Shown in pieces: positions 18,930 through 55,726 of a DNA stretch of 64,000 bases. How positions within the stretch are numbered: position 1 is the first letter of the stretch; each line of letters starts with the position of its first letter. Made by a program: the position numbers and the translations under genes. The notes under the pieces are model-generated. The model had not been told where the DNA came from, did not search any database, and was given only the letters and a program-made list of their open reading frames with translations. The stretch is from the NCBI GenBank assembly GCA_016932045.1, contig JAFGDO010000002.1, positions 2,553-66,552 of the forward strand, given 5' to 3'. Source of the stretch: Candidatus Dojkabacteria bacterium. GTDB taxonomy: Bacteria > Patescibacteriota > Dojkabacteria > JAHIVN01.

Positions 18930-21674
18930 ATGAAAAAATCAAGAGTTTGGATTCTGTTGCTTTTTATTTTCCTAGTAGGTCTCGGCGGAGCCGCTGTATG
19001 GATCGGCTGGCGTCTTCAACAGGAAGAAGAAGTTATTCCACAGGAAAGCGAAGCTGCAGCAGGTGACCATCAATGTATAGGTTACAATAACAATCCAGAT
19101 GATTGGGGGCATGTTGATTTTTGTTTATCTGGTACGAGTACTGCTTGTAATGAAGCACAGGCAGAATACTATGCAGGGAAAGGTTGCAGAGGATGTTGTT
19201 CAAAGATGATCCCTTGTACTAAACAACAAGTTGATTATGACAATGATTACAAAGTAGTCGTATACGGTCCTAATCCTGGTGGAGGAGAGTGGTGTAGGGA
19301 GTATCTACCGGGAGATGATGGGAGTCGGAAGTGTGGACGAGACACGCCTGATCCTGATACTTGGGACTGGACAAATTGTACTGTGTGCGATGATGTCCAA
19401 GCGGAATGGGATTTTGATTCGCAGCCCGGGAAAGTTGTTTTAAGAATTACAAGTGCAGCTATGCACGATATGGACAATATAAATAGCTCACATAATCAAG
19501 ATGATGTGCCAGCGATAATGTCAAAGCAAAGAATGAGAGTCGAAATAAATAGATATGACGCAGGGGGCAATGTCATAGGTTCAGCACAGAATATCTCAGG
19601 ACAATTAGAGTTCTTACCAGATAATTGTTCTTTAACCTATAAACTTGGGAAAAGTAACGCTGGTTGCAACTATGGGAGAGACTGTGCTATTGATCCGAAC
19701 GATCTTTGTTGTGATGGAAATGGCCCGCGATGGGGAACGTGGAATGGGGGCTATAGGTGTAATTTATCAAATACTAGAGAATACACCTTCGATGTTGATC
19801 GCAACGCAGATAGTTATGGATATACTTTCTATGTAGAGGGTTTTAGTCCATTTACCAACTCACAGTGGAAGACGGCTGATACTTGCAAGGGGTTTGTGGA
19901 TGCACCTGAGCAGTTTAATTGCGGAGATCCCTGTACAAATCCTCAGGGATCTTGTGATGACGGGAGTAATTGTATTGATCTTAGAGATATTATTCCAGCA
20001 GGAGAAGAAGCTTGTGATGGATATGTGTGTTGTGTAGGAGATGATTTCATTGATGAATTTGGTAATGTGAATTGTCCTTTCAGCGAACATGTAGCTAGTG
20101 GATGTAGATGTCTTGAAACTATTCAGTGTGACAGTATGTCCTCACCTCAGGCAGTTGGAGATACTATCACGGTGCAGCAGGAGGGTGATACATTCGTGAT
20201 TACAGTACAGGGAACAGATGGTGATGGAACGATCAGACAGATCTCCATATGTTCAGCTGTTGCAAATCAGCCAGATGAGTATTATCGGAGGGGACTAGAG
20301 GTATGGAATTGTGAGGAAACTCAATCTGCTGATAATACTTTTACAATTACTCGAACTTATGCATCATTAGTCGACGGTCAGGGTGATGATGATGTTTTAA
20401 ATCCTGATGGACTGGATATTAGTGCAAACAGCATAGTGTTCGCAGCTAATTTATGGGATGAGCCGGATAGAAGTATATTTTGCTCATCAAATCCAGGCTA
20501 TGGCGATACATCTCATGGTATTTTATATGGGAATTATTGTTCTCAGGATCCTGCCGCTTGTGACCTGTGTAACTTAGGAACAAATAGCTGTAGGATGATT
20601 TTACAACTGGCAGAAGAAGAGTGCGATTGTACTTCGATCCAGAGAAGTCCTAGTGGTGATACGATTGCCCCAGGAAGTAATGTATGGGTTCAAGTTACTG
20701 ATTCTTGTGAGATAGGCTATAGTGAAGTCGAATGGTTTTGGAGCGAAGGAGAAACTGGTACGCCTCAGCAGACGAACTTCAGTGATAGGATACCTGGGCC
20801 AAGTGATGATCCTGAGCTGAACCATAGCGTGATTTTTTCCGTTCCCGTAACAGCAAGCGGGACAATATGCATTTGGGCACGAACTCAAGGTGAGGATGAT
20901 CCTGATTGCCGGGATTGTTTTAATATTGGAGGCGAAGAGGAACCAGCTTACGCAGCAGTAAAGACGAGCGAGATGGTATGTATAAATAATAATAGTGCAG
21001 CAAGGATAACATATAGAATTCATGTAAGGAATATATCAGGAGTAGTAGGTACAATTGATTATGTAGAAGACACATATGATTCAAGGATACAAACAAGCTG
21101 GGTAAGCGGTATAAGCCCGCTTCCATATGAGCACACAGGAAACGTGATAAGGTGGGATAATAATGATACTGGATATGTCCTGCAGCCAAATGATGGTGCA
21201 GCTGGTGGAGCAGATGAGATAGAGTTCAGCTATATAGTGACAGTACCATCAGAATATTTTGGCACGTGGGAGGGAGGAGTATTTGTACCGTATCAGTATA
21301 GGAATCATGCTGTCGTCAAGCCGAGAGACGAGGAACCCATAGAACTGGCAACAGTAGTAAGTATTCAATGTGCCGTCGGTACAGGTATTTTTAGCAGTGC
21401 AGTGAAGGATATGTTAATTGGTCTAATACTTATTCTGCTTGGATTGACTATGATAAGGATACATGAAAGTACCTATAAATACCTTATACCAATAGAATAT
21501 GCATATAAAGAGAGTGTTATAGGTCTGAAAAATGGTGTAAATATGGTTAGAACTGAATGCAAAGCTGTACTAGATAAGTGTAAAACGTTTGTGTTTGAGA
21601 GGTTTAAGCTTACAAGCAAAGAAAGATTTGAACGTAAAATTGTAAGAAGAGCAGAAAAGAAAAAAGGGACCTAG
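18930..21674 (+). CDS. Giant Cys-rich surface protein (914 aa) with N-terminal signal-anchor, DUF11-like C-terminal module, C-terminal TM helix and basic cytoplasmic tail
   Basis: N-terminus MKKSRVWILLLFIFLVGLGGAAVWIGWRL. More than 60 Cys in the ectodomain. C-terminal TYRIHVRNISG...DYVEDTYD resembles the DUF11 conserved repeat. Then a TM helix IGLILILLGLTMI and the tail ...SKERFERKIVRRAEKKKGT. Confidence 0.6.
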   Translation: MKKSRVWILLLFIFLVGLGGAAVWIGWRLQQEEEVIPQESEAAAGDHQCIGYNNNPDDWGHVDFCLSGTSTACNEAQAEYYAGKGCRGCCSKMIPCTKQQVDYDNDYKVVVYGPNPGGGEWCREYLPGDDGSRKCGRDTPDPDTWDWTNCTVCDDVQAEWDFDSQPGKVVLRITSAAMHDMDNINSSHNQDDVPAIMSKQRMRVEINRYDAGGNVIGSAQNISGQLEFLPDNCSLTYKLGKSNAGCNYGRDCAIDPNDLCCDGNGPRWGTWNGGYRCNLSNTREYTFDVDRNADSYGYTFYVEGFSPFTNSQWKTADTCKGFVDAPEQFNCGDPCTNPQGSCDDGSNCIDLRDIIPAGEEACDGYVCCVGDDFIDEFGNVNCPFSEHVASGCRCLETIQCDSMSSPQAVGDTITVQQEGDTFVITVQGTDGDGTIRQISICSAVANQPDEYYRRGLEVWNCEETQSADNTFTITRTYASLVDGQGDDDVLNPDGLDISANSIVFAANLWDEPDRSIFCSSNPGYGDTSHGILYGNYCSQDPAACDLCNLGTNSCRMILQLAEEECDCTSIQRSPSGDTIAPGSNVWVQVTDSCEIGYSEVEWFWSEGETGTPQQTNFSDRIPGPSDDPELNHSVIFSVPVTASGTICIWARTQGEDDPDCRDCFNIGGEEEPAYAAVKTSEMVCINNNSAARITYRIHVRNISGVVGTIDYVEDTYDSRIQTSWVSGISPLPYEHTGNVIRWDNNDTGYVLQPNDGAAGGADEIEFSYIVTVPSEYFGTWEGGVFVPYQYRNHAVVKPRDEEPIELATVVSIQCAVGTGIFSSAVKDMLIGLILILLGLTMIRIHESTYKYLIPIEYAYKESVIGLKNGVNMVRTECKAVLDKCKTFVFERFKLTSKERFERKIVRRAEKKKGT

Positions 21675-49987: not shown

Positions 49988-50524
49988 TTACAACTTATAC
50001 TCTAGGTGAATATCATTGGGTTCGAGCTTATATAGTTCCTTATTAATATCTTTCGCAAGTGTGCAGCCCATGTGTTTGTAGAAGTCTACTGTATTCATAT
50101 TTTCTGTAGCCGATACATATAGTTTTTTTGCGCCAAGTCGTCTTGCTTCTTTTGCAGCTATTCTAAAAAGTTTTCCGCCAAGCCCCTTTTTTCTGTATGT
50201 ACGGCCTATGTGGAGGAATTTCAGTTGAAGTGTGTCTTCATTCTTTCCTATGAACTTTTGATCAAGTATGACTACAGCTATCATTTTTTGTCCGACAAAT
50301 CCTCCTAAAAAGTAACCTCCTCTATCAAAGCAGTTAGTAAGTATTGGTTGGTATTTTTCGACTTCGCCTGGTGGCCAGCCTTTTGCTTCAAAATTAACTT
50401 TCTTGAGTTTAATACCTTCATCAATGTTAACATAGACAGAGTCAACAGATTCACTGCGATCTATATCAGTCCAGATTTGTGGAAGATCGGCTTTTTTCAA
50501 TTTTCGAAACATTATATTATCCAT
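49988..50524 (-). CDS. GNAT-family N-acetyltransferase (start trimmed so as not to overlap tRNA-His)
   Basis: Motif A RKKGLGGKLFRIAAKEARRLG. The track ORF extends to 50671 across the tRNA-His gene, so the start is taken at MDNIMFRKL (50524). Confidence 0.7.
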   Translation of the reverse strand: MDNIMFRKLKKADLPQIWTDIDRSESVDSVYVNIDEGIKLKKVNFEAKGWPPGEVEKYQPILTNCFDRGGYFLGGFVGQKMIAVVILDQKFIGKNEDTLQLKFLHIGRTYRKKGLGGKLFRIAAKEARRLGAKKLYVSATENMNTVDFYKHMGCTLAKDINKELYKLEPNDIHLEYKL

Positions 50525-50592
50525 GATCGGGGTTATTATACATTGTTTTTTGATACAGATCGATTGTAAAGAGGATTGTGGAAGGGGATAGA

Positions 50593-50669
50593 TGGGGTGG
50601 TCGGTGGGATTTGAACCCACGACAGCTCGCTCCACAGGCGAGTGCTCTACCAACTGAGCTACGACCACC
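50593..50669 (-). tRNA. tRNA-His (anticodon GUG) with encoded G-1 and CCA
   Basis: G-1 plus acceptor GUGGUCG/CGACCAC. D arm GCUC-AGUUGGU-AGAGC. Anticodon stem CUCGC/GCGAG with loop CUGUGGA. T arm GUGGG-UUCAAAU-CCCAC. Discriminator C, then CCA. Confidence 0.85.
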
Positions 50670-50967
50670 ATACTTCACAAAATTTCACTTTGTTCAATTT
50701 GTTTTGTATGGTAAACCACAAAATCACTGAACAATTAAAATTTTGATTGAAGTATGAGTGTCTTACGAAGTTTTAACAGAGTAAGACACCATACAGTACA
50801 ATATTATACCTGATTATTAACTCTCCTGGAAAGTATATTTGAAGAGCATTGGTTATAATTTGGAAATTATATCCCGTAGAAGATTCGCTGCGCTTATCTC
50901 CACGGGATTATATATCTCTACGATTTTTCTGCTCCCACTAAGCGGGATTGAAAAATCTAGAGCTATA

Positions 50968-50994: not shown

Positions 50995-51123
50995 TGGGGC
51001 AGTGGCATATATAAAATAACATTTCTTTCGCCTAATTGCAAGATTATTTGGGCGTGTCAGCACGTTGACTATGTGGCTGCTAATATACTATTAGAGCAAA
51101 AAATTGGTTCATTGGATATTAAA

Positions 51124-51263
51124 GCAAAGTGCGCTCGACAGGACTCGCCTGTCCGCCTTGGGCGGAAACCTGTAAACCTGCTTTTGTCTGAGATAGCAAA
51201 GTGCGCTCGACAGGACTCGCCTGTCCGCCTTGGGCGGAAACCTGTAAACCTGCTCTTATCTGA
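51124..51263 (-). repeat. Two tandem 70-nt direct repeats, each a copy of the tRNA-Arg(UCU) 3' end (acceptor and T-arm 3' strands) carrying a 20-nt hairpin insertion
   Basis: Units gcaaagtgcgctcgacaggactcgCCTGTCCGCCTTGGGCGGAAacctgtaaacctgct... occur at 51124-51193 and 51194-51263, and the genuine tRNA starts at 51264 in the same phase. The units differ at 3 positions. Confidence 0.75.
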
Positions 51264-51273
51264 GATAGCAAAG

Positions 51274-51346
51274 TGCGCTCGACAGGACTCGAACCTGTAA
51301 CCTACTGCTTAGAAGGCAGTTGCTCTATCCATTGAGCTACGAGCGC
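51274..51346 (-). tRNA. tRNA-Arg (anticodon UCU)
   Basis: Acceptor GCGCUCG/CGAGCGC. D arm GCUC-AAUGGAU-AGAGC. Anticodon stem ACUGC/GCAGU with loop CUUCUAA. T arm ACAGG-UUCGAGU-CCUGU. Discriminator A. Confidence 0.8.
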
Positions 51347-51360
51347 ACTTTGCTTTGTCA

Positions 51361-51486
51361 AAACAAGAAAGGCAGTTGCTCCCGTGTCCCGTAAATTGAG
51401 CGTTAGCAAAATTCTACGGGATATCCAATTGTCAGCCCAAGGCTGCCTGTCCTGGTCTAAGCATGCCAGGGATGAGCCTAGGGCTC
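51361..51486 (-). repeat. tRNA-Arg 5'-half-like remnant plus 55-nt structured hairpin element (homologous to the insert in the tRNA-Lys remnant)
   Basis: Minus sense reads GAGCCCUAGGCUCAUCCCUGG...CCAGGACAGGCAGCCUUGGGCUGA-CAAUUG, then a diverged GGGAGCAACUGCCUUUCUU that resembles the tRNA-Arg D-stem/anticodon stem. Confidence 0.5.
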
Positions 51487-51629
51487 AAGCAATCGGCATA
51501 CACTATCTAACTCTATGATTATAATAAAAATATATGATAAACTCAATTATTATAGAGATTACTGGCGCTTAAATTGTATAATTGGATGAAAAAGATTAAA
51601 ATTAGTATATTCTTTTTTCAGAAAAGCTT

Positions 51630-52793
51630 ATGAATCAATTACTTCCAGCGACAAAGGAATATTTCAAAAAGGTCTATGAAAGTATTATAGGGTCGGTGAA
51701 GAAAAATAGAGATGTTCATCTGATTGGTCTGCGTGAGTCTGGAAAGACCTACGTGATGAAGATGCTTGCTCTTTCAAAGCAAGGGGTATCCTTCAGGAAA
51801 TTATATCCAAGGGTAGAGGTCTTCTTTATTGATCAAGATCTTGTTGGGGAGGAGGAATTTGTATGGCTGCAGCTTGCTAAGCAGATGGACATCGAGTCTT
51901 CAGAAAATATTTCCGTACTTTTCCACAAGATTCTATCTTATGTCGATGATAAGACAAGGAATAAGGGATACACTTTAGTTCTAATTCTAAATCAGCTACT
52001 CACGTGGCGATCATTATCCTCAGATCTGATAGATAAGCTTCTTAAGATAAAAACTATTTTTTCAGAGAAGGTTAAATTTGTGATTATCTCAAATGCCTTC
52101 GAAGATTATTCGTCAAGTCAGGATTATCTAGACACATTATCAATTCTCAATTTTAAAAGGATTTGGTTTCCGATTCTTTCCTTAGAAGATACCAAAAAGC
52201 AAATAGCTGAAAATAGAGTAAAAGCGGGAAAAAGTATTAAAGAAATAGAGAGTGAAAGCTATTTTGAGATAATTTTTAGACTAAGCGGGGGGATTCCCGG
52301 GATAACGAAGAAGTTGATGTCGGTCCCATTAAAAGGCATTGAAGGTGGACCTGAGGATCTGCTTAAGAATAAATCTATTATTCAGCAGCTGTTATTTACG
52401 TTAAAAGGTATAGATTTTAAGTATCTTGATTTACTCAAAAAAGGTAAATACAGCGAAGAATTATATAAATCAGGATTGACCGATAGGAAAGGGAGAATCA
52501 AGAGCTCGCTTATAATGAATTTTCTAGAAAACTTCGACTATAAAACGATGCTTAGGCAAAAAGCTATTCCGGAGCAATTATTATCGGTTCAGGAGAAAAA
52601 GGTATATGATCTTTTGAAGAAAAATAAAGGCGAAACTGTTGCAAGAGAGGAAATTGCTCAAGTTATGTGGGGAGAAGAATATACTCAGAAGTACTCAGAT
52701 TGGGCTATTGATTCATTAATAAAAAGAATTAGACAGAAGATTCCTACAGTCAAGATAGTAACCCAAAAAGGTAAGGGTTATGTTTTTAAATAG
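51630..52793 (+). CDS. P-loop NTPase fused to C-terminal OmpR/PhoB-type winged-helix DNA-binding domain
   Basis: Walker A HLIGLRESGKTYVMKML and a candidate Walker B VFFIDQD. C-terminal ...AREEIAQVMWGEEYTQKYSDWAIDSLIKRIRQKIP...KGKGYVFK follows the trans_reg_C pattern. GC about 34%. Confidence 0.55.
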   Translation: MNQLLPATKEYFKKVYESIIGSVKKNRDVHLIGLRESGKTYVMKMLALSKQGVSFRKLYPRVEVFFIDQDLVGEEEFVWLQLAKQMDIESSENISVLFHKILSYVDDKTRNKGYTLVLILNQLLTWRSLSSDLIDKLLKIKTIFSEKVKFVIISNAFEDYSSSQDYLDTLSILNFKRIWFPILSLEDTKKQIAENRVKAGKSIKEIESESYFEIIFRLSGGIPGITKKLMSVPLKGIEGGPEDLLKNKSIIQQLLFTLKGIDFKYLDLLKKGKYSEELYKSGLTDRKGRIKSSLIMNFLENFDYKTMLRQKAIPEQLLSVQEKKVYDLLKKNKGETVAREEIAQVMWGEEYTQKYSDWAIDSLIKRIRQKIPTVKIVTQKGKGYVFK

Positions 52794-52805
52794 TGCAAGA
52801 TTAAG

Positions 52806-54884
52806 ATGACCGAAGAAAAGCCACAAAGAGATCCTGAAACCGACTATTTCCTTAAATCCTACGCAAAGCGTCTGCAAGTAAGCGCAGAAAGACAAGAGAC
52901 TGTTGTCTTTCTGCCAGAATTAGCTTTGCCCGAAGTTCGAGAAGGGCTCGATGCCCTCTTTGGTAGTGAAGCAGTATACGAAATTTCCGAAACTACAGGT
53001 GAAACTTCTGAATATGACTCATCAACTACATACGTTGGAGTAGGGGATACAGTTGATTCGACTGAGCGAATTGAGCAAGCTCTAGGAGATTCTGCTGTAG
53101 GGCATTTGCCTGATGAAGAGAGAAGGGCTATTGCCGAGCAATCTCGAAGGCTACAACTCTTTTTCCATGATTGTTTAAGTACTGATCCTCAAGCAATTCG
53201 AGCCGTTCTTAAAGAGAATCCCAATATGGATGTTGAGGCAAGAAAGTATTACTACAGAATGTATCTACTTCGGGTTGTTATTGATCACATAATTGGGGAG
53301 TATAGAGCCAGGGGGTGGGATACAGATGAAGCCTACTTACCACTAGGATTTGTATACGGCAGTGCAGCAGAAAAGACACCTGAGGGAACTGAGATAATTG
53401 AACTCAAGGCAGATAATGTGCCTTGTCCAGCTAGACGTCTTGTAAGACCAACAAGTGATATTGACGTCTGTGTACCAATGAGTATTGGCCGGGTTAAAGA
53501 TTCTTTAGAGCTTAGAAGAAAACTAGAAAAAGCCAGGGATGTCTTGGATGGTACAACTTTATATGACGAAGTAATGACTGGGGTAACTGAATCATTTGAA
53601 AGACATGGGATGCAAGCGGCTCATCGCTTTGCAAATGCACGAGAATTTGCAAGAGGAACACTAAGTATGCGAGAGATTTCAGATCATTCTCTACTGGGGC
53701 TTGTGATCTATATGGCAAGAAGGGTGATCGGTTATAAATTCGTACACGAAGTATCTTATAAAAATGTAAGACATCCAATTATTGATATTACGACCCCGGA
53801 ACATAATCTTACTAAAAGTACATTGTACAATCCACATGAGTTTGCTCGAGCGGTTTCAACAGACGCCTTTTCTTTTACAGACGGTGAGAGCAGGGTAGGG
53901 TTTCTCCTGGGAGTTCGTTTTATCGCAGGTAGACCAATTGCTGTGGGGGACATTGTTGCACTACAGCATAGAAGCGCCGAGTCCCAAAAAGCGGGGCCTT
54001 TAAAACCAAGGGAAATTTTCTTTGAAAGGCTTTATGCTTCTTACTCGGATATCAAAGCTGTTGCTTACTCGTTCATGCGTAGAATACTAGCTATGGACGA
54101 TGAAGTCATCGGAACAAATCTTAGAGATTTAATCCACCCGCGACTCTTATTCCTCATGGGCAGTCAGGTTCTAAAGCTTGATGTTTGTACAGAAAGGTTT
54201 GCTTTTTCAAGACTTGCTGCTTATGCTGAACCCTATAATAAGGAGCACATTGATTATTTTTTACATCACTTCCTTAGGGTTTTAAGTAGTATTGCATTAA
54301 GGATTATTTCTCAAGATAAAGCTGCAAGAGCTATCAAATTAGAGGAGATGGATTTAAGTGAAATTTATAATCTCTTATCTCTTGGAACTCGAAGGGCTCT
54401 TGCTATGTATTTACAGATGCTAGAGGTTATGGGAATTCATCACATGTGGAACGTTTTGGCAAGGAACCTAATTCTTGCTGGAAGAGTTGAGGTGTGTCAG
54501 GGTGACCTATCGACCAGACAGCACTATGAAATTCTTGCCTACCCAGAGACTCTGGGTGAGGTTGGTATTGCGTCTGAACTGCTTGAGGGCTCCGATCAGT
54601 TATTTCCAAGTGTTTTTACAGCTACACGTGATACACAGAGCGATTTGCCTACAATTAACATCTTGCAGTTACTAAGCAGGCCGAAGATAGATGAGATAGA
54701 AGCTCAAGTAGAAGAGCATTATGCAGAGCAAAAGCAAGATACACGTTTCCGTCAGAGGTTTGCTTCGGTTTTACTAAGTATTTTGCATGAGAATCCCTAT
54801 TTGTGGAATGGTGTGGCTGATCTGCTTCAGCTACCAGGACAACTCAGACAGATGCTAAAACACACACTAAGAATCTCCCGTTAA
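52806..54884 (+). CDS. Orphan 692-aa protein, compositionally foreign (GC about 44%), with a possible polymerase-beta-type nucleotidyltransferase motif
   Basis: Starts 12 nt after the ATPase-wHTH gene. Contains LGFVYGSAAEK...(about 30 aa)...PTSDIDVCVP (a GS...DhDh-like arrangement with an unusually long spacer), then a Leu-rich helical C-terminal half. No other motif recognised. Confidence 0.4.
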   Translation: MTEEKPQRDPETDYFLKSYAKRLQVSAERQETVVFLPELALPEVREGLDALFGSEAVYEISETTGETSEYDSSTTYVGVGDTVDSTERIEQALGDSAVGHLPDEERRAIAEQSRRLQLFFHDCLSTDPQAIRAVLKENPNMDVEARKYYYRMYLLRVVIDHIIGEYRARGWDTDEAYLPLGFVYGSAAEKTPEGTEIIELKADNVPCPARRLVRPTSDIDVCVPMSIGRVKDSLELRRKLEKARDVLDGTTLYDEVMTGVTESFERHGMQAAHRFANAREFARGTLSMREISDHSLLGLVIYMARRVIGYKFVHEVSYKNVRHPIIDITTPEHNLTKSTLYNPHEFARAVSTDAFSFTDGESRVGFLLGVRFIAGRPIAVGDIVALQHRSAESQKAGPLKPREIFFERLYASYSDIKAVAYSFMRRILAMDDEVIGTNLRDLIHPRLLFLMGSQVLKLDVCTERFAFSRLAAYAEPYNKEHIDYFLHHFLRVLSSIALRIISQDKAARAIKLEEMDLSEIYNLLSLGTRRALAMYLQMLEVMGIHHMWNVLARNLILAGRVEVCQGDLSTRQHYEILAYPETLGEVGIASELLEGSDQLFPSVFTATRDTQSDLPTINILQLLSRPKIDEIEAQVEEHYAEQKQDTRFRQRFASVLLSILHENPYLWNGVADLLQLPGQLRQMLKHTLRISR

Positions 54885-54997
54885 ACTTTCCTATCACTTA
54901 ATTCTCTGTCAGATTCTGTCAGAGTCACTGCCAAGCAAATCCATTTTTTATATAGTATGATTCACCTTACTTATATAATCATTTTATATATACGACT

Positions 54998-55243
54998 ATG
55001 ACAAATGAAGGTCCAACTATAATTGAAGGTGAACTTGTAGATGCTCGACGTGCAGGAGGAGCGATATATAAACACAGTGAGCGAGTTTCGACAGATCAGG
55101 CACAAGCAATAGCAGGACTTAGAGCTCCTGTAGCTTGTACTGATATTACCAGATACACATCCGAAGCAGCAAGAGCACTTTTTGCTCAAGGAAGACTGTC
55201 TCAGGCTGAAATAGCAGCTCTAAGAAGCGCGGGTAAACTTTAA
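54998..55243 (+). CDS. Hypothetical Ala-rich 81-aa protein with its own AT-rich upstream region
   Basis: ORF with similarly elevated GC. No SD-like sequence. Function unknown. Confidence 0.3.
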   Translation: MTNEGPTIIEGELVDARRAGGAIYKHSERVSTDQAQAIAGLRAPVACTDITRYTSEAARALFAQGRLSQAEIAALRSAGKL

Positions 55244-55267: not shown

Positions 55268-55603
55268 ATGGACAAGAAGAAAAAGATTCTTATTGCCGTT
55301 GCAGTTGTTCTTCTTGCATGTCCTTTGTTTGGATATGGAGCAGCAAAGCTTTTCCTTCTACCAGCTAGCCCAAATAAGGTTTGTCAGCATATGTGGGATT
55401 TAACAGAAAAAGAATTGAAAGATATAGTTGGTGAAGAAGAGGCAAAGAAAATGCTGGAAGAGGAGATGGGCAGTATTGATGAATGTGTAAAAGATGAGAA
55501 GAAAAGACGAGAGAATTCAACAAAAGGCATGTTAGAAATCAAGAAGGAAGCAGATTGCATCCTTGATGCAAAAAGCTTAGAGGATTTAGAAAAGTGTGAT
55601 TAA
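55268..55603 (+). CDS. Small exported protein or lipoprotein (signal peptide with Cys near the cleavage region)
   Basis: MDKKKKILIAVAVVLLACPLFGYGAAK, then a charged helical region. Confidence 0.4.
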   Translation: MDKKKKILIAVAVVLLACPLFGYGAAKLFLLPASPNKVCQHMWDLTEKELKDIVGEEEAKKMLEEEMGSIDECVKDEKKRRENSTKGMLEIKKEADCILDAKSLEDLEKCD

Positions 55604-55687
55604 ATAAATTGATGCCTCGTGCTGGAAGTAAAATCCAGTGCGAGGCCACACTCAATTTGCTTAAGATAGAACTATTCAAAAGGGGGT

Positions 55688-55726
55688 AACAAGAGAGTAG
55701 CTAGTCTACTCTCTTGTTTTATTTGG
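55688..55726 (+). terminator. Rho-independent terminator after the 55268 gene (preceded by a second hairpin at 55614-55646)
   Basis: AACAAGAGAGTAG-ctagt-CTACTCTCTTGTT (13-bp perfect stem) followed by TTATTTGG. Confidence 0.6.

Follow-up and report, generated by a model that had tools for sequence, protein, structure and literature searches.

A native regulator–partner gene pair beside tRNA-Arg in a Candidatus Dojkabacteria genome recurs across Patescibacteria and may encode a nucleotidyltransferase cassette

Introduction

In the AbiE system the gene of a winged-helix regulator precedes the gene of a nucleotidyltransferase (NTase), and the regulator acts both as a repressor of the operon and as an antagonist of the enzyme (PMC3985639). 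The catalytic blocks of the enzyme, AbiEii, are spaced as hG[GS]-x15-DhD, in which h is a hydrophobic residue, and in motif II residue R63 precedes D67 and D69 (PMC3985639). In the MenAT system an NTase modifies the acceptor stems of tRNAs, and its control is exerted by a cognate partner that is diverse and evolves fast (PMC10435456, PMC11375011). Here we analyze a gene pair of comparable layout, which is located at positions 51630–54884 of a 64,000-nucleotide (nt) stretch, below called the window, from a genome of Candidatus Dojkabacteria (Patescibacteria; contig JAFGDO010000002.1, positions 2,553 to 66,552 of the forward strand). The first gene encodes a 387-amino-acid (aa) protein, in which an AAA+ domain is joined to an OmpR-type winged helix, while the second encodes a 692-aa partner protein with a candidate motif of the polymerase-beta (Pol-beta) NTases. 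The original prediction, which was made from the sequence letters and a list of open reading frames (ORFs), proposed that the pair belongs to a module acquired at a tRNA-Arg gene. Our best explanation, to which we give somewhat less than an even chance, is an AbiE/MenAT-like cassette of a regulator and an NTase, of an undescribed type, native to its genome and recurrent across Patescibacteria.

The likeness of the pair to AbiE is seen in the bicistronic order, with the regulator followed 12 nt later by the putative NTase partner on the same strand. R214 of the window protein stands before D218 and D220 at the same offset as R63 before D67 and D69 of AbiEii, and the spacer between the motifs is longer than canonical in both proteins, 15 residues in AbiEii and 31 in the window protein. 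Additionally, one cluster of partners found beside related regulators (L028/L002) contains the sequence KGSTVLNLIYG...RSDIDV, and was weakly matched by AbiEii after trimming of its spacer. On the other hand, the 692-aa protein had no match to PF08843 (AbiEii/DUF1814) or to AbiE in PADLOC, it is much longer than the 238 positions of the PF08843 model, and neither motif III nor motif IV of DUF1814 was identified in it. The regulator also differs from COG5340/AbiEi, because the winged helix-turn-helix (wHTH) of the latter is N-terminal, while here an OmpR-type winged helix is C-terminal and placed on an AAA+ domain. The likeness to MenAT is that of a two-gene cassette, which serves as an example of how a regulator–NTase pair can work. 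No sequence relationship to MenAT was detected, and here it is the regulator family that is recognizable across genomes, while the enzyme is the hyper-divergent component.

Two further groups of proteins resemble the regulator in its ATPase part. It is 10–17% identical to Orc1/Cdc6 and archaeal PF01637-type Walker ATPases (PAB2304, Protein Data Bank (PDB) entry 2qen), but its winged helix is of the OmpR/PhoB Trans_reg_C type rather than the initiator type, it lacks the acidic residues of Walker B, most of its relatives lack Walker A, and no link to replication genes was seen. The STAND regulators (MalT, NB-ARC/NLR, Avs) differ in that the regulator studied here has no TPR, LRR, or WD40 sensor and only 387 aa, that the effector is a separate gene, and that the family is largely P-loop-degenerate. 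In its possible way of working the cassette is most like AbiE or MenAT, yet by sequence and by regulator architecture it falls outside both.

Results and Discussion

The regulator and its family

Residues 318–386 of the 387-aa protein were matched by the Trans_reg_C model (PF00486) with an E-value of 1.6e-10 and a score of 41.4 bits, compared to the cut-off of 26.2 bits, and the closest solved winged-helix domains to this region were those of CssR and WalR. The OmpR/PhoB response regulators have a C-terminal DNA-binding domain of the same family, but the 387-aa protein differs from them in having neither a receiver domain nor a cognate kinase. No match to Response_reg was found, and the NCBIfam matches spanned only the C-terminal 70 residues and were far under their cut-offs; with no receiver domain present, the identity of the protein as a response regulator was ruled out. 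The protein has the alpha/beta core and the helical lid of the AAA+ fold, and its Walker A sequence agrees with the consensus GxxxxGK[ST], while the consensus of Walker B, hhhhD[DE], is not matched, as the corresponding strand contains no acidic residue. Because Asn-Gln takes the place of Asp-Glu in Walker B, the ability to hydrolyze ATP was probably lost. The retention of the P-loop without these acidic residues suggests that the protein, a DNA-binding regulator, is a nucleotide-binding switch rather than a motor. The original prediction recognized neither protein of the pair as a described family, which holds for the 692-aa orphan, while for the 387-aa protein it is only the domains that are known. 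The combination of a P-loop with Trans_reg_C, which had been considered uncommon, proved not to be so in the phylum, though most members have lost Walker A.

The relatives of the regulator were collected by scanning one genome per species with the peptide [KFR]YSDWAID, which yielded 78 loci; together with loci reached through protein matches this gave 84 distinct regulator genes. Nearly all of the loci belong to Patescibacteria (Microgenomates groups, Dojkabacteria, and Saccharibacteria), and several genomes hold two or three family loci or tandem copies. The canonical Walker A was kept in about nine of the 85 sequences screened, which represent the 84 distinct genes, while in the others it was degenerate (e.g., GLPLSSRS) or absent. 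Judged from these sequences, the family is thus largely one of pseudo-ATPases. No description of the regulator family or of the gene pair was found in the literature searched with the chosen terms. Tandem or near-tandem regulator paralogues were seen within single loci (L014, 5341–9950; L033, 5527–8052; L055, 5974–10561), and in L014 two regulator copies flank a 658-aa partner, the end of which overlaps the second copy by 4 nt. Some family genes lie on contigs labeled as uncultured Gammaproteobacteria (binchicken metagenome-assembled genomes), Bathyarchaeia, or Clostridia; the oddly labeled contigs include L013–L015, L026, L027, L029, L035, L036, L038–L040, L042, and L055, and their labels likely result from taxonomic mislabeling or mis-binning.

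Large genes adjacent to the regulators

A partner was defined as an ORF of at least 300 aa which lies within −60 to +100 nt of the regulator gene, with three positions counted. At least one such ORF was present at 60 of the 84 regulator genes, with 34 partners downstream and co-directional, 19 downstream and convergent, and 19 upstream and co-directional, and many partners overlapped the regulator gene by 4–32 nt. Because adjacency alone is weak evidence in dense genomes, the partners were compared with control ORFs of the same loci in four respects, which were Pfam content, divergence together with recurrence, composition, and the presence of an NTase signature. The Pfam search showed that 37 partners matched 13 families, in at most five members, while 31 control neighbors of at least 340 aa matched 65 families, including gyrase, SecA, CTP synthase, and aminoacyl-tRNA synthetases. 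The partners were strongly diverged, and most of them were BLASTP singletons. Homologous partners nonetheless recurred beside family regulators across genomes and orientations, as was seen for C_L028 and D_L002 (E 1.6e-5), the regulators of which are reciprocal best matches, for C_L059 and D_L055 (E 9e-29), for C_L043 and D_L014 (E 1e-9), and for the clusters of C_L040 and D_L061 (hhalign probability 93.6%). The pairing of the regulator with a large ORF thus recurs across Patescibacteria.

The composition of the partners was distinct as well. The mean R/(R+K) ratio was 0.53 in partners compared to 0.35 in regulators, with the partner higher in 67 of 75 pairs, and compared to 0.40 in controls (p 9e-6). 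The partners are not all of one kind. A HAD-type DFDGT motif was present in L010, L030, and L038, the Pfam Hydrolase family was matched by two partners, the L037 partner contained a deaminase domain, the L039 cluster was weakly matched by a cytidylyltransferase, and many partners gave no match. Some of the neighbors in the partner position were housekeeping genes (ArgRS, methyltransferase).

An NTase signature among the partner proteins

In an unbiased all-against-all phmmer comparison, LLVGGAARNMALGREELTDLDLMM of the L042 partner was aligned with FIVGGAARSLMSPNDENQRFNDLDICMM of the L077 partner. This alignment corresponds to the Pol-beta signature hG[GS]...DhD, which is also present in the 692-aa protein of the window. 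A relaxed form of the signature (h-G-[GS], then 7–62 residues, then D-h-D-h, inside the first 350 residues) was found in 10 of 47 partner clusters and in only one of the 221 same-locus control ORFs, all at least 300 aa long, and a stricter form in 8 of 47 clusters and in none of the 221 controls, ratios that are optimistic because the patterns were partly refined after examples had been seen, even though the contrast is still large. In shuffled partners the relaxed signature appeared in a mean of 0.74 clusters and the stricter one in 0.06, and since chance thus produces the relaxed form in about 0.74 of 47 clusters, the two-block motif by itself is weak evidence. The spacers between the motif blocks in other partners were 13–37 residues long.

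The signature is best seen in six partners encoded upstream of their regulators, which form two clusters linked by hhalign (86.9%), and three of which were not chosen by the motif search. In the first 260 residues of these six proteins, with the start Met set aside, the only invariant positions were the G of motif I, the D-x-D, the R of an R-h-[D/E]-h strand, and two N-terminal positions. As far as these sequences tell, this is the catalytic pattern of an NTase. Two sub-threshold matches also fell on the motif region, one of MdcG_C, which we take to be an NTase-fold domain, to the L017 partner (E 0.028), and one of AbiEii to the spacer-trimmed L028 partner (E 0.0042), the latter partly by construction. 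A six-sequence partner profile found nothing relevant in the PDB, and its best match to the E. coli CCA-adding enzyme covered motif A only (E 0.04; the enzyme sequence was validated on CCA enzymes of the PDB). The use of a nine-sequence core alignment as a database query gave no match.

The 692-aa partner protein

The 2079-nt open frame, in which the GC content falls from the first through the second to the third codon position (GC1 > GC2 > GC3), indicates that the 692-aa ORF is a real gene. Its product is rich in Arg, Ala, and Leu, as the original prediction stated, with 8.5% R and 3.3% K (R/(R+K) 0.72) compared to 3.9% R and 13.1% K in the 387-aa protein, and its Arg content agrees with that of the partners as a class. 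No hydrophobic segment was found in it, and a membrane or secreted partner was on this basis ruled out. The GS...DID motif with a long spacer was also as predicted (FVYGSAAEK...RPTSDIDVCV, with 31 residues between S186 and D218). By sequence, motif I hG[GS] is present at the close of a hydrophobic strand (FVYG185S186) and motif II [DE]h[DE]h as S-D218-I-D220-V-C-V, so that both blocks stand in a hydrophobic strand context (FVYGS, DIDVCV), and R214 lies four residues before the first Asp of motif II. The candidates for a third acidic residue are D254/E255 (LYDEVM, +34) or D327 (PIIDIT), on which the alignments disagree. The gene itself occupies the position in which proteins with the NTase signature are enriched.

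The searches for homologues of the 692-aa protein covered several large collections. No homologue was found by a word-indexed search of 5.8 billion proteins, though close relatives may sit within the protein's own 90% cluster. When 1.84 billion representatives were searched exhaustively with phmmer, the single match was to a protein with repeated carrier-protein domains, and it was rejected as spurious, its score being inflated by five repeated stretches. No relatives were found in viral contigs, phage GenBank, or JGI metagenome contigs. The representative of the 90%-identity cluster to which the 692-aa protein (MBN2015317.1) belongs is an ENA fragment of 50 aa (P0011) that shows no visible similarity to the protein, which explains why the query had no self-match in either of the large protein searches.

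The 692-aa partner is a very fast-evolving cytoplasmic protein, the core of which is probably a Pol-beta-type NTase, formed by G185-S186, R214, D218-x-D220, and possibly D254/E255, in which a long insert would separate the two catalytic blocks. This assignment comes from the motif and from the genomic context, and the chance that the protein is a functional NTase can be put at roughly two-fifths.

Native character of the gene pair

The GC shift described in the original prediction was confirmed. The 387-aa gene has 35.1% GC, the 692-aa gene 42.1% over its whole length and 44.0% in its first 100 nt, and the 81-aa ORF that follows 44.3%. The proposed acquisition was not borne out, as GC3, tetranucleotides, and codon usage are native and the GC step is class-wide. 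With a GC3 of 0.322, the 692-aa gene stands midway in the window range of 0.21–0.41, and its excess GC is confined to the first and second codon positions (0.554 and 0.387); other genes of the window attain 43–44% GC. The tetranucleotide distance in 2-kb windows over 50.5–57 kb stayed within about 1.2 standard deviations (sd) of the window mean, and below 1 sd across the module. In leave-one-out codon adaptation the 692-aa gene was on the low side but in the window range (z −1.69), and the 81-aa ORF had a z of +1.76. The check for a foreign signature in GC, tetranucleotides, and codons thus came out native. The GC content of the partner exceeded that of the regulator in 69 of 75 pairs (p 1e-12), in genomes of 31–51% GC, while the GC3 of the partner was if anything lower, and the GC of partners relative to their loci did not differ from that of controls (p 0.35). 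The GC step between the neighbors is explained by an Arg-rich partner standing beside a Lys-rich regulator.

The repeats at tRNA-Arg(TCT) were examined in the same context. Two tandem 72-nt units at 51123–51266 copy the 3′ end of the tRNA, and a 25-mer composed of the tRNA 3′ end and 6 nt of trailer has exactly three copies, spaced by 72 nt, at 51123–51291, on the 3′ side of the tRNA (lower coordinates). The module sits on the 5′ side. It is the tRNA 3′ end that tRNA-targeting integrases use. No copy of the tRNA 3′ end was found beyond the module, and no element lies between the copies. Hence, the att-like tRNA fragments of the original prediction do exist, but none brackets the module. The 72-nt units may have been left behind by repeated rounds of integration and excision, or may come from duplication by slippage. 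The ORFs that were scanned from 47.8 to 57.5 kb gave no match to an integrase or transposase domain, and viral and phage collections yielded no relatives. Two relatives reached through ThrRS (59% and 52% identical) shared no other gene with the window. The composition and the placement of the repeats indicate that the locus is a native gene pair, which was not acquired, at least not recently.

Interpretation of the gene pair

If the pair does work as a cassette of regulator and NTase, its operation may be pictured by analogy with the described systems. The regulator would bind direct repeats at its own promoter through the winged helix and set the expression of the operon, while its AAA+ domain, as a nucleotide-bound switch and possibly in physical contact with the partner, would restrain or license it; the active partner would then nucleotidylate its target, which could be an RNA, a protein, or a small molecule. 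A conflict-type system, with a role like that of a toxin–antitoxin pair or in defense, would fit the extreme divergence, the occurrence of several copies in one genome, and a gene order that is interchangeable. The suggestion in the original prediction of a nucleotide-binding wHTH regulator combined with a possible Pol-beta NTase was thus supported by the signature enrichment among partners and by the six-member family, but not by any profile, model, or homology of the 692-aa protein.

Several observations weigh against this cassette reading. The 31 residues between S186 and D218 exceed the canonical 9–13 as well as the 15 of AbiEii, the 692-aa sequence was unmatched in Pfam (even at E ≤ 10), NCBIfam, PHROGs, and PADLOC, and a phmmer search of all chain sequences in the PDB gave no relevant match. 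The single-sequence AF2 model, at a pLDDT of 38 and a pTM of 0.27, was unusable. Comparison of the protein by hhalign with 46 partner clusters and with the six-member upstream-partner profile gave nothing significant, and neither did the six-sequence partner profile searched against the 692-aa protein. When the spacer was trimmed from 31 to 13 residues, the only Pfam matches were Polbeta (E 0.036) and NTP_transf_2 (E 0.12), but of ten control constructs (FVYGS, a 13-residue spacer, and SDIDVCV, with the rest shuffled) four matched Polbeta, with E-values from 5e-4 to 0.2. The trimmed core therefore adds nothing beyond the motif, and its matches were discarded as evidence for an NTase. To this must be added the partial refinement of the motif patterns mentioned above, and the fact that about three-quarters of the partner clusters have no NTase signature, a few being HAD-like, deaminase-containing, or cytidylyltransferase-like; the regulators nearest to that of the window have HAD-like or unknown partners. 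As to a role in defense, the four proteins of the locus matched no PADLOC-DB 2.0 model at E ≤ 0.1, the local neighbors are housekeeping genes, and viral contigs contained no member of the family.

Much of this evidence can be read in another way, namely that the pairing is real while the 692-aa partner is not an NTase, and the GS...DID match arose by chance in a fast-diverging protein of mostly alpha-helical structure, which could be an adaptor, a target, or another effector controlled by the AAA+–wHTH regulator. This alternative is a serious one, with a probability of around one-third. It agrees with the 31-residue spacer, with the lack of profile, structure, or homology support for the protein, including homology to the NTase-signature partners, with the shuffled-context constructs, whose matches to Polbeta are as good as that of the real trimmed core, with the signature-free majority of partner clusters, some of which are other enzymes, and with the AF2 model, which at its low confidence is almost wholly helical. 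What it leaves unexplained is the 20- to 40-fold enrichment of the signature among the partners of this regulator family, its coincidence with the only invariant residues of one partner family, and the hydrophobic strand context of both blocks together with the Arg at −4. The pairing itself could be doubted if the 387-aa protein were an ordinary stand-alone transcription factor, with large neighbors adjacent by chance in compact genomes. Patescibacteria genomes are indeed dense, with many genes having a neighbor within 100 nt, 24 of the 84 family members lacked a neighbor of 300 aa or more in all three of the counted positions, and some neighbors were housekeeping genes. However, homologous partners recur across genomes and orientations, their coding regions frequently overlap those of the regulators, and compared to same-locus controls they are poor in Pfam matches, rich in the NTase signature, and richer in Arg, which makes chance adjacency improbable.

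The two remaining explanations invoke mobile DNA. A recently acquired island at tRNA-Arg(TCT), with att-like tRNA fragments as its boundaries, would account for the tRNA 3′-half copies and a 16-nt tRNA fragment at 51363–51384, for the rise of GC from 35% to 42–44%, for the low-side codon adaptation of the 692-aa gene, and for the lack of a homologue of its product in the collections searched. It is very doubtful in view of the typical GC3 and tetranucleotide usage (z < 1), the class-wide GC step that follows from Arg versus Lys usage, the placement of all three tRNA 3′-end copies on the side of the tRNA opposite to the module, and the lack of integrase domains in the scanned ORFs and of viral or phage relatives. 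Still less credible is a module for the replication or maintenance of an element, either integrated or extrachromosomal, made of an origin-binding Orc1/Cdc6-like initiator and a polymerase- or primase-like partner. The winged-helix DNA-binding domain and the repeats and AT-rich region upstream would suit such a module, but with Walker A lost in most members and the Walker B acidic residues absent here the regulator is ill-suited to be an initiator ATPase, the copies are chromosomal, several per genome and beside housekeeping genes, none was found on viral contigs, and no other mobile-element genes are present locally.

A wider form of the preferred cassette reading can also be considered, although we regard it as rather unlikely. 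In it, the pairs would make up a phylum-wide, undescribed class of cassettes, in which degenerate AAA+/OmpR-type wHTH regulators are combined with hyper-divergent nucleotide-transferring enzymes, mostly Pol-beta NTase-like and some cytidylyltransferase-, HAD-, or deaminase-like, with interchangeable gene order and several copies per genome. Such cassettes would serve as a lineage-specific system of the toxin–antitoxin or immune type, or as a nucleotide-signaling switch, and the 692-aa orphan would be an extreme member.

Patescibacteria, also known as the Candidate Phyla Radiation, have tiny genomes, in which a large share of genes has no assigned function. A recurrent, multi-copy pair with an enzyme partner beyond the reach of sequence searches offers an entry into this uncharacterized fraction, and indicates that genomic context can expose catalytic signatures missed by profile searches. 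Should the mode of action be that of AbiE or MenAT, the pair would represent a conflict or growth-control system in a lineage in which none of these proteins is matched by PADLOC models, with a regulator architecture (AAA+ with an OmpR-type winged helix and a mostly dead P-loop) that has no description in the literature searched. The locus also carries a lesson on composition, as a GC step taken as a sign of horizontal transfer proved to be an amino-acid effect with native third-position GC.

Organization of the locus

The features of the locus are collected in Table 1. The ORFs of 387, 692, and 81 aa lie where the original prediction had placed them, and the gap of 12 nt without a Shine–Dalgarno sequence between the first two was likewise found; the spacer is TGCAAGATTAAG, and contains no GGAGG-type sequence. 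The pair of strong hairpins beyond the module is also real, and it is the second of them, at 55688–55718, that is followed by a T run. The encoded proteins are NCBI entries MBN2015316–19, the last three of which are annotated as hypothetical.

Table 1. Coordinates of genes, protein motifs, and predicted signals at the regulator–partner locus (window positions)
Feature	Coordinates	Strand	Basis or annotation
tRNA-Arg(TCT)	51273–51346	−	tRNA detection
Direct repeat AACTC(T/A)AT(G/T)ATTATA, two copies (51509, 51540), 31 nt apart	51509–51554	+	Abuts −35 element
Promoter-like TAGAGA-18-TATAAT	51553–51582	+	10/12 matches, consensus match only; ends 48 nt before ATG 51630
387-aa regulator ORF	51630–52793	+	NCBI MBN2015316.1; Orc1/Cdc6/STAND-like AAA+ P-loop with C-terminal OmpR/PhoB-type winged helix
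Walker A GLRESGKT, aa 33–40, intact	51726–51749	+	Sequence
Walker B strand TLVLILNQ, aa 115–122; Asn-Gln where Asp-Glu expected	51972–51995	+	Predicted strand aa 115–121
Trans_reg_C winged helix-turn-helix, aa 318–386	52581–52787	+	Pfam PF00486
Family-invariant YSDWAID within Trans_reg_C	52692–52712	+	Family comparison
692-aa partner ORF	52806–54884	+	MBN2015317.1, hypothetical protein; soluble, Arg-rich orphan
Candidate NTase motif I FVYGSAAEK (G185, S186)	53349–53375	+	Sequence
Candidate NTase motif II RPTSDIDVCV (R214, D218, D220)	53445–53474	+	Sequence
81-aa Ala-rich orphan ORF	54998–55243	+	MBN2015318.1
111-aa lipoprotein-like ORF, final gene ahead of terminator	55268–55603	+	Weak LA_2478 family match
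13-bp hairpin, −23.3 kcal/mol, without T run	55614–55646	+	Folding
Intrinsic-terminator-like hairpin, 13 pairs, −17.6 kcal/mol, then TTTATTT	55688–55718	+	Folding

The first terminator after the co-directional regulator and partner ORFs is that at 55688, and the transcription unit probably extends from the promoter-like site at 51553–51582 to this hairpin. No terminator was found between 54884 and 54998, and for this reason the 81-aa ORF probably shares the transcription unit with the pair, its membership in the system being unproven. It is doubtful that the 111-aa ORF is a member. It has a lipoprotein-like N-terminus (ILIAVAVVLLAC), and its match to the NCBIfam Leptospira family LA_2478 (E 1.7e-4) is below the cut-off. 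The domains of the OmpR family typically bind direct repeats, and the repeat at 51509–51554 is a candidate operator for the winged helix of the regulator.

Other observations concern the tRNA genes and the intergenic DNA. The search of 50.0–56.5 kb with Rfam returned two tRNAs only. The 72-nt units beside tRNA-Arg(TCT) are degenerate copies of its 3′ half, with a CCGCC-CAA-GGCGG hairpin inserted, and a 16-nt partial copy of the tRNA anticodon/D-arm lies at 51363–51384. The leader and trailer that directly flank the same tRNA are perfectly complementary to each other over 17 nt (51121–51137 / 51340–51356; AAAGCAAAGTGCGCTCG / CGAGCGCACTTTGCTTT), which suggests that the acceptor stem could be extended by about 8–10 bp in the precursor. 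The intergenic sequence at 51347–51500 has 45–47% GC in a window of 37% GC and contains several imperfect inverted repeats, with no Rfam match. The strongest tetranucleotide outlier of the window is located elsewhere, at about 19–21 kb, over a 914-aa ORF (18930–21674), the second-position GC of which is unusually high (0.445). Finally, in the first-start listing a GNAT acetyltransferase ORF (49988–50671) overlaps tRNA-His (50593–50668) on the same strand, from which it follows that its real start must be internal.

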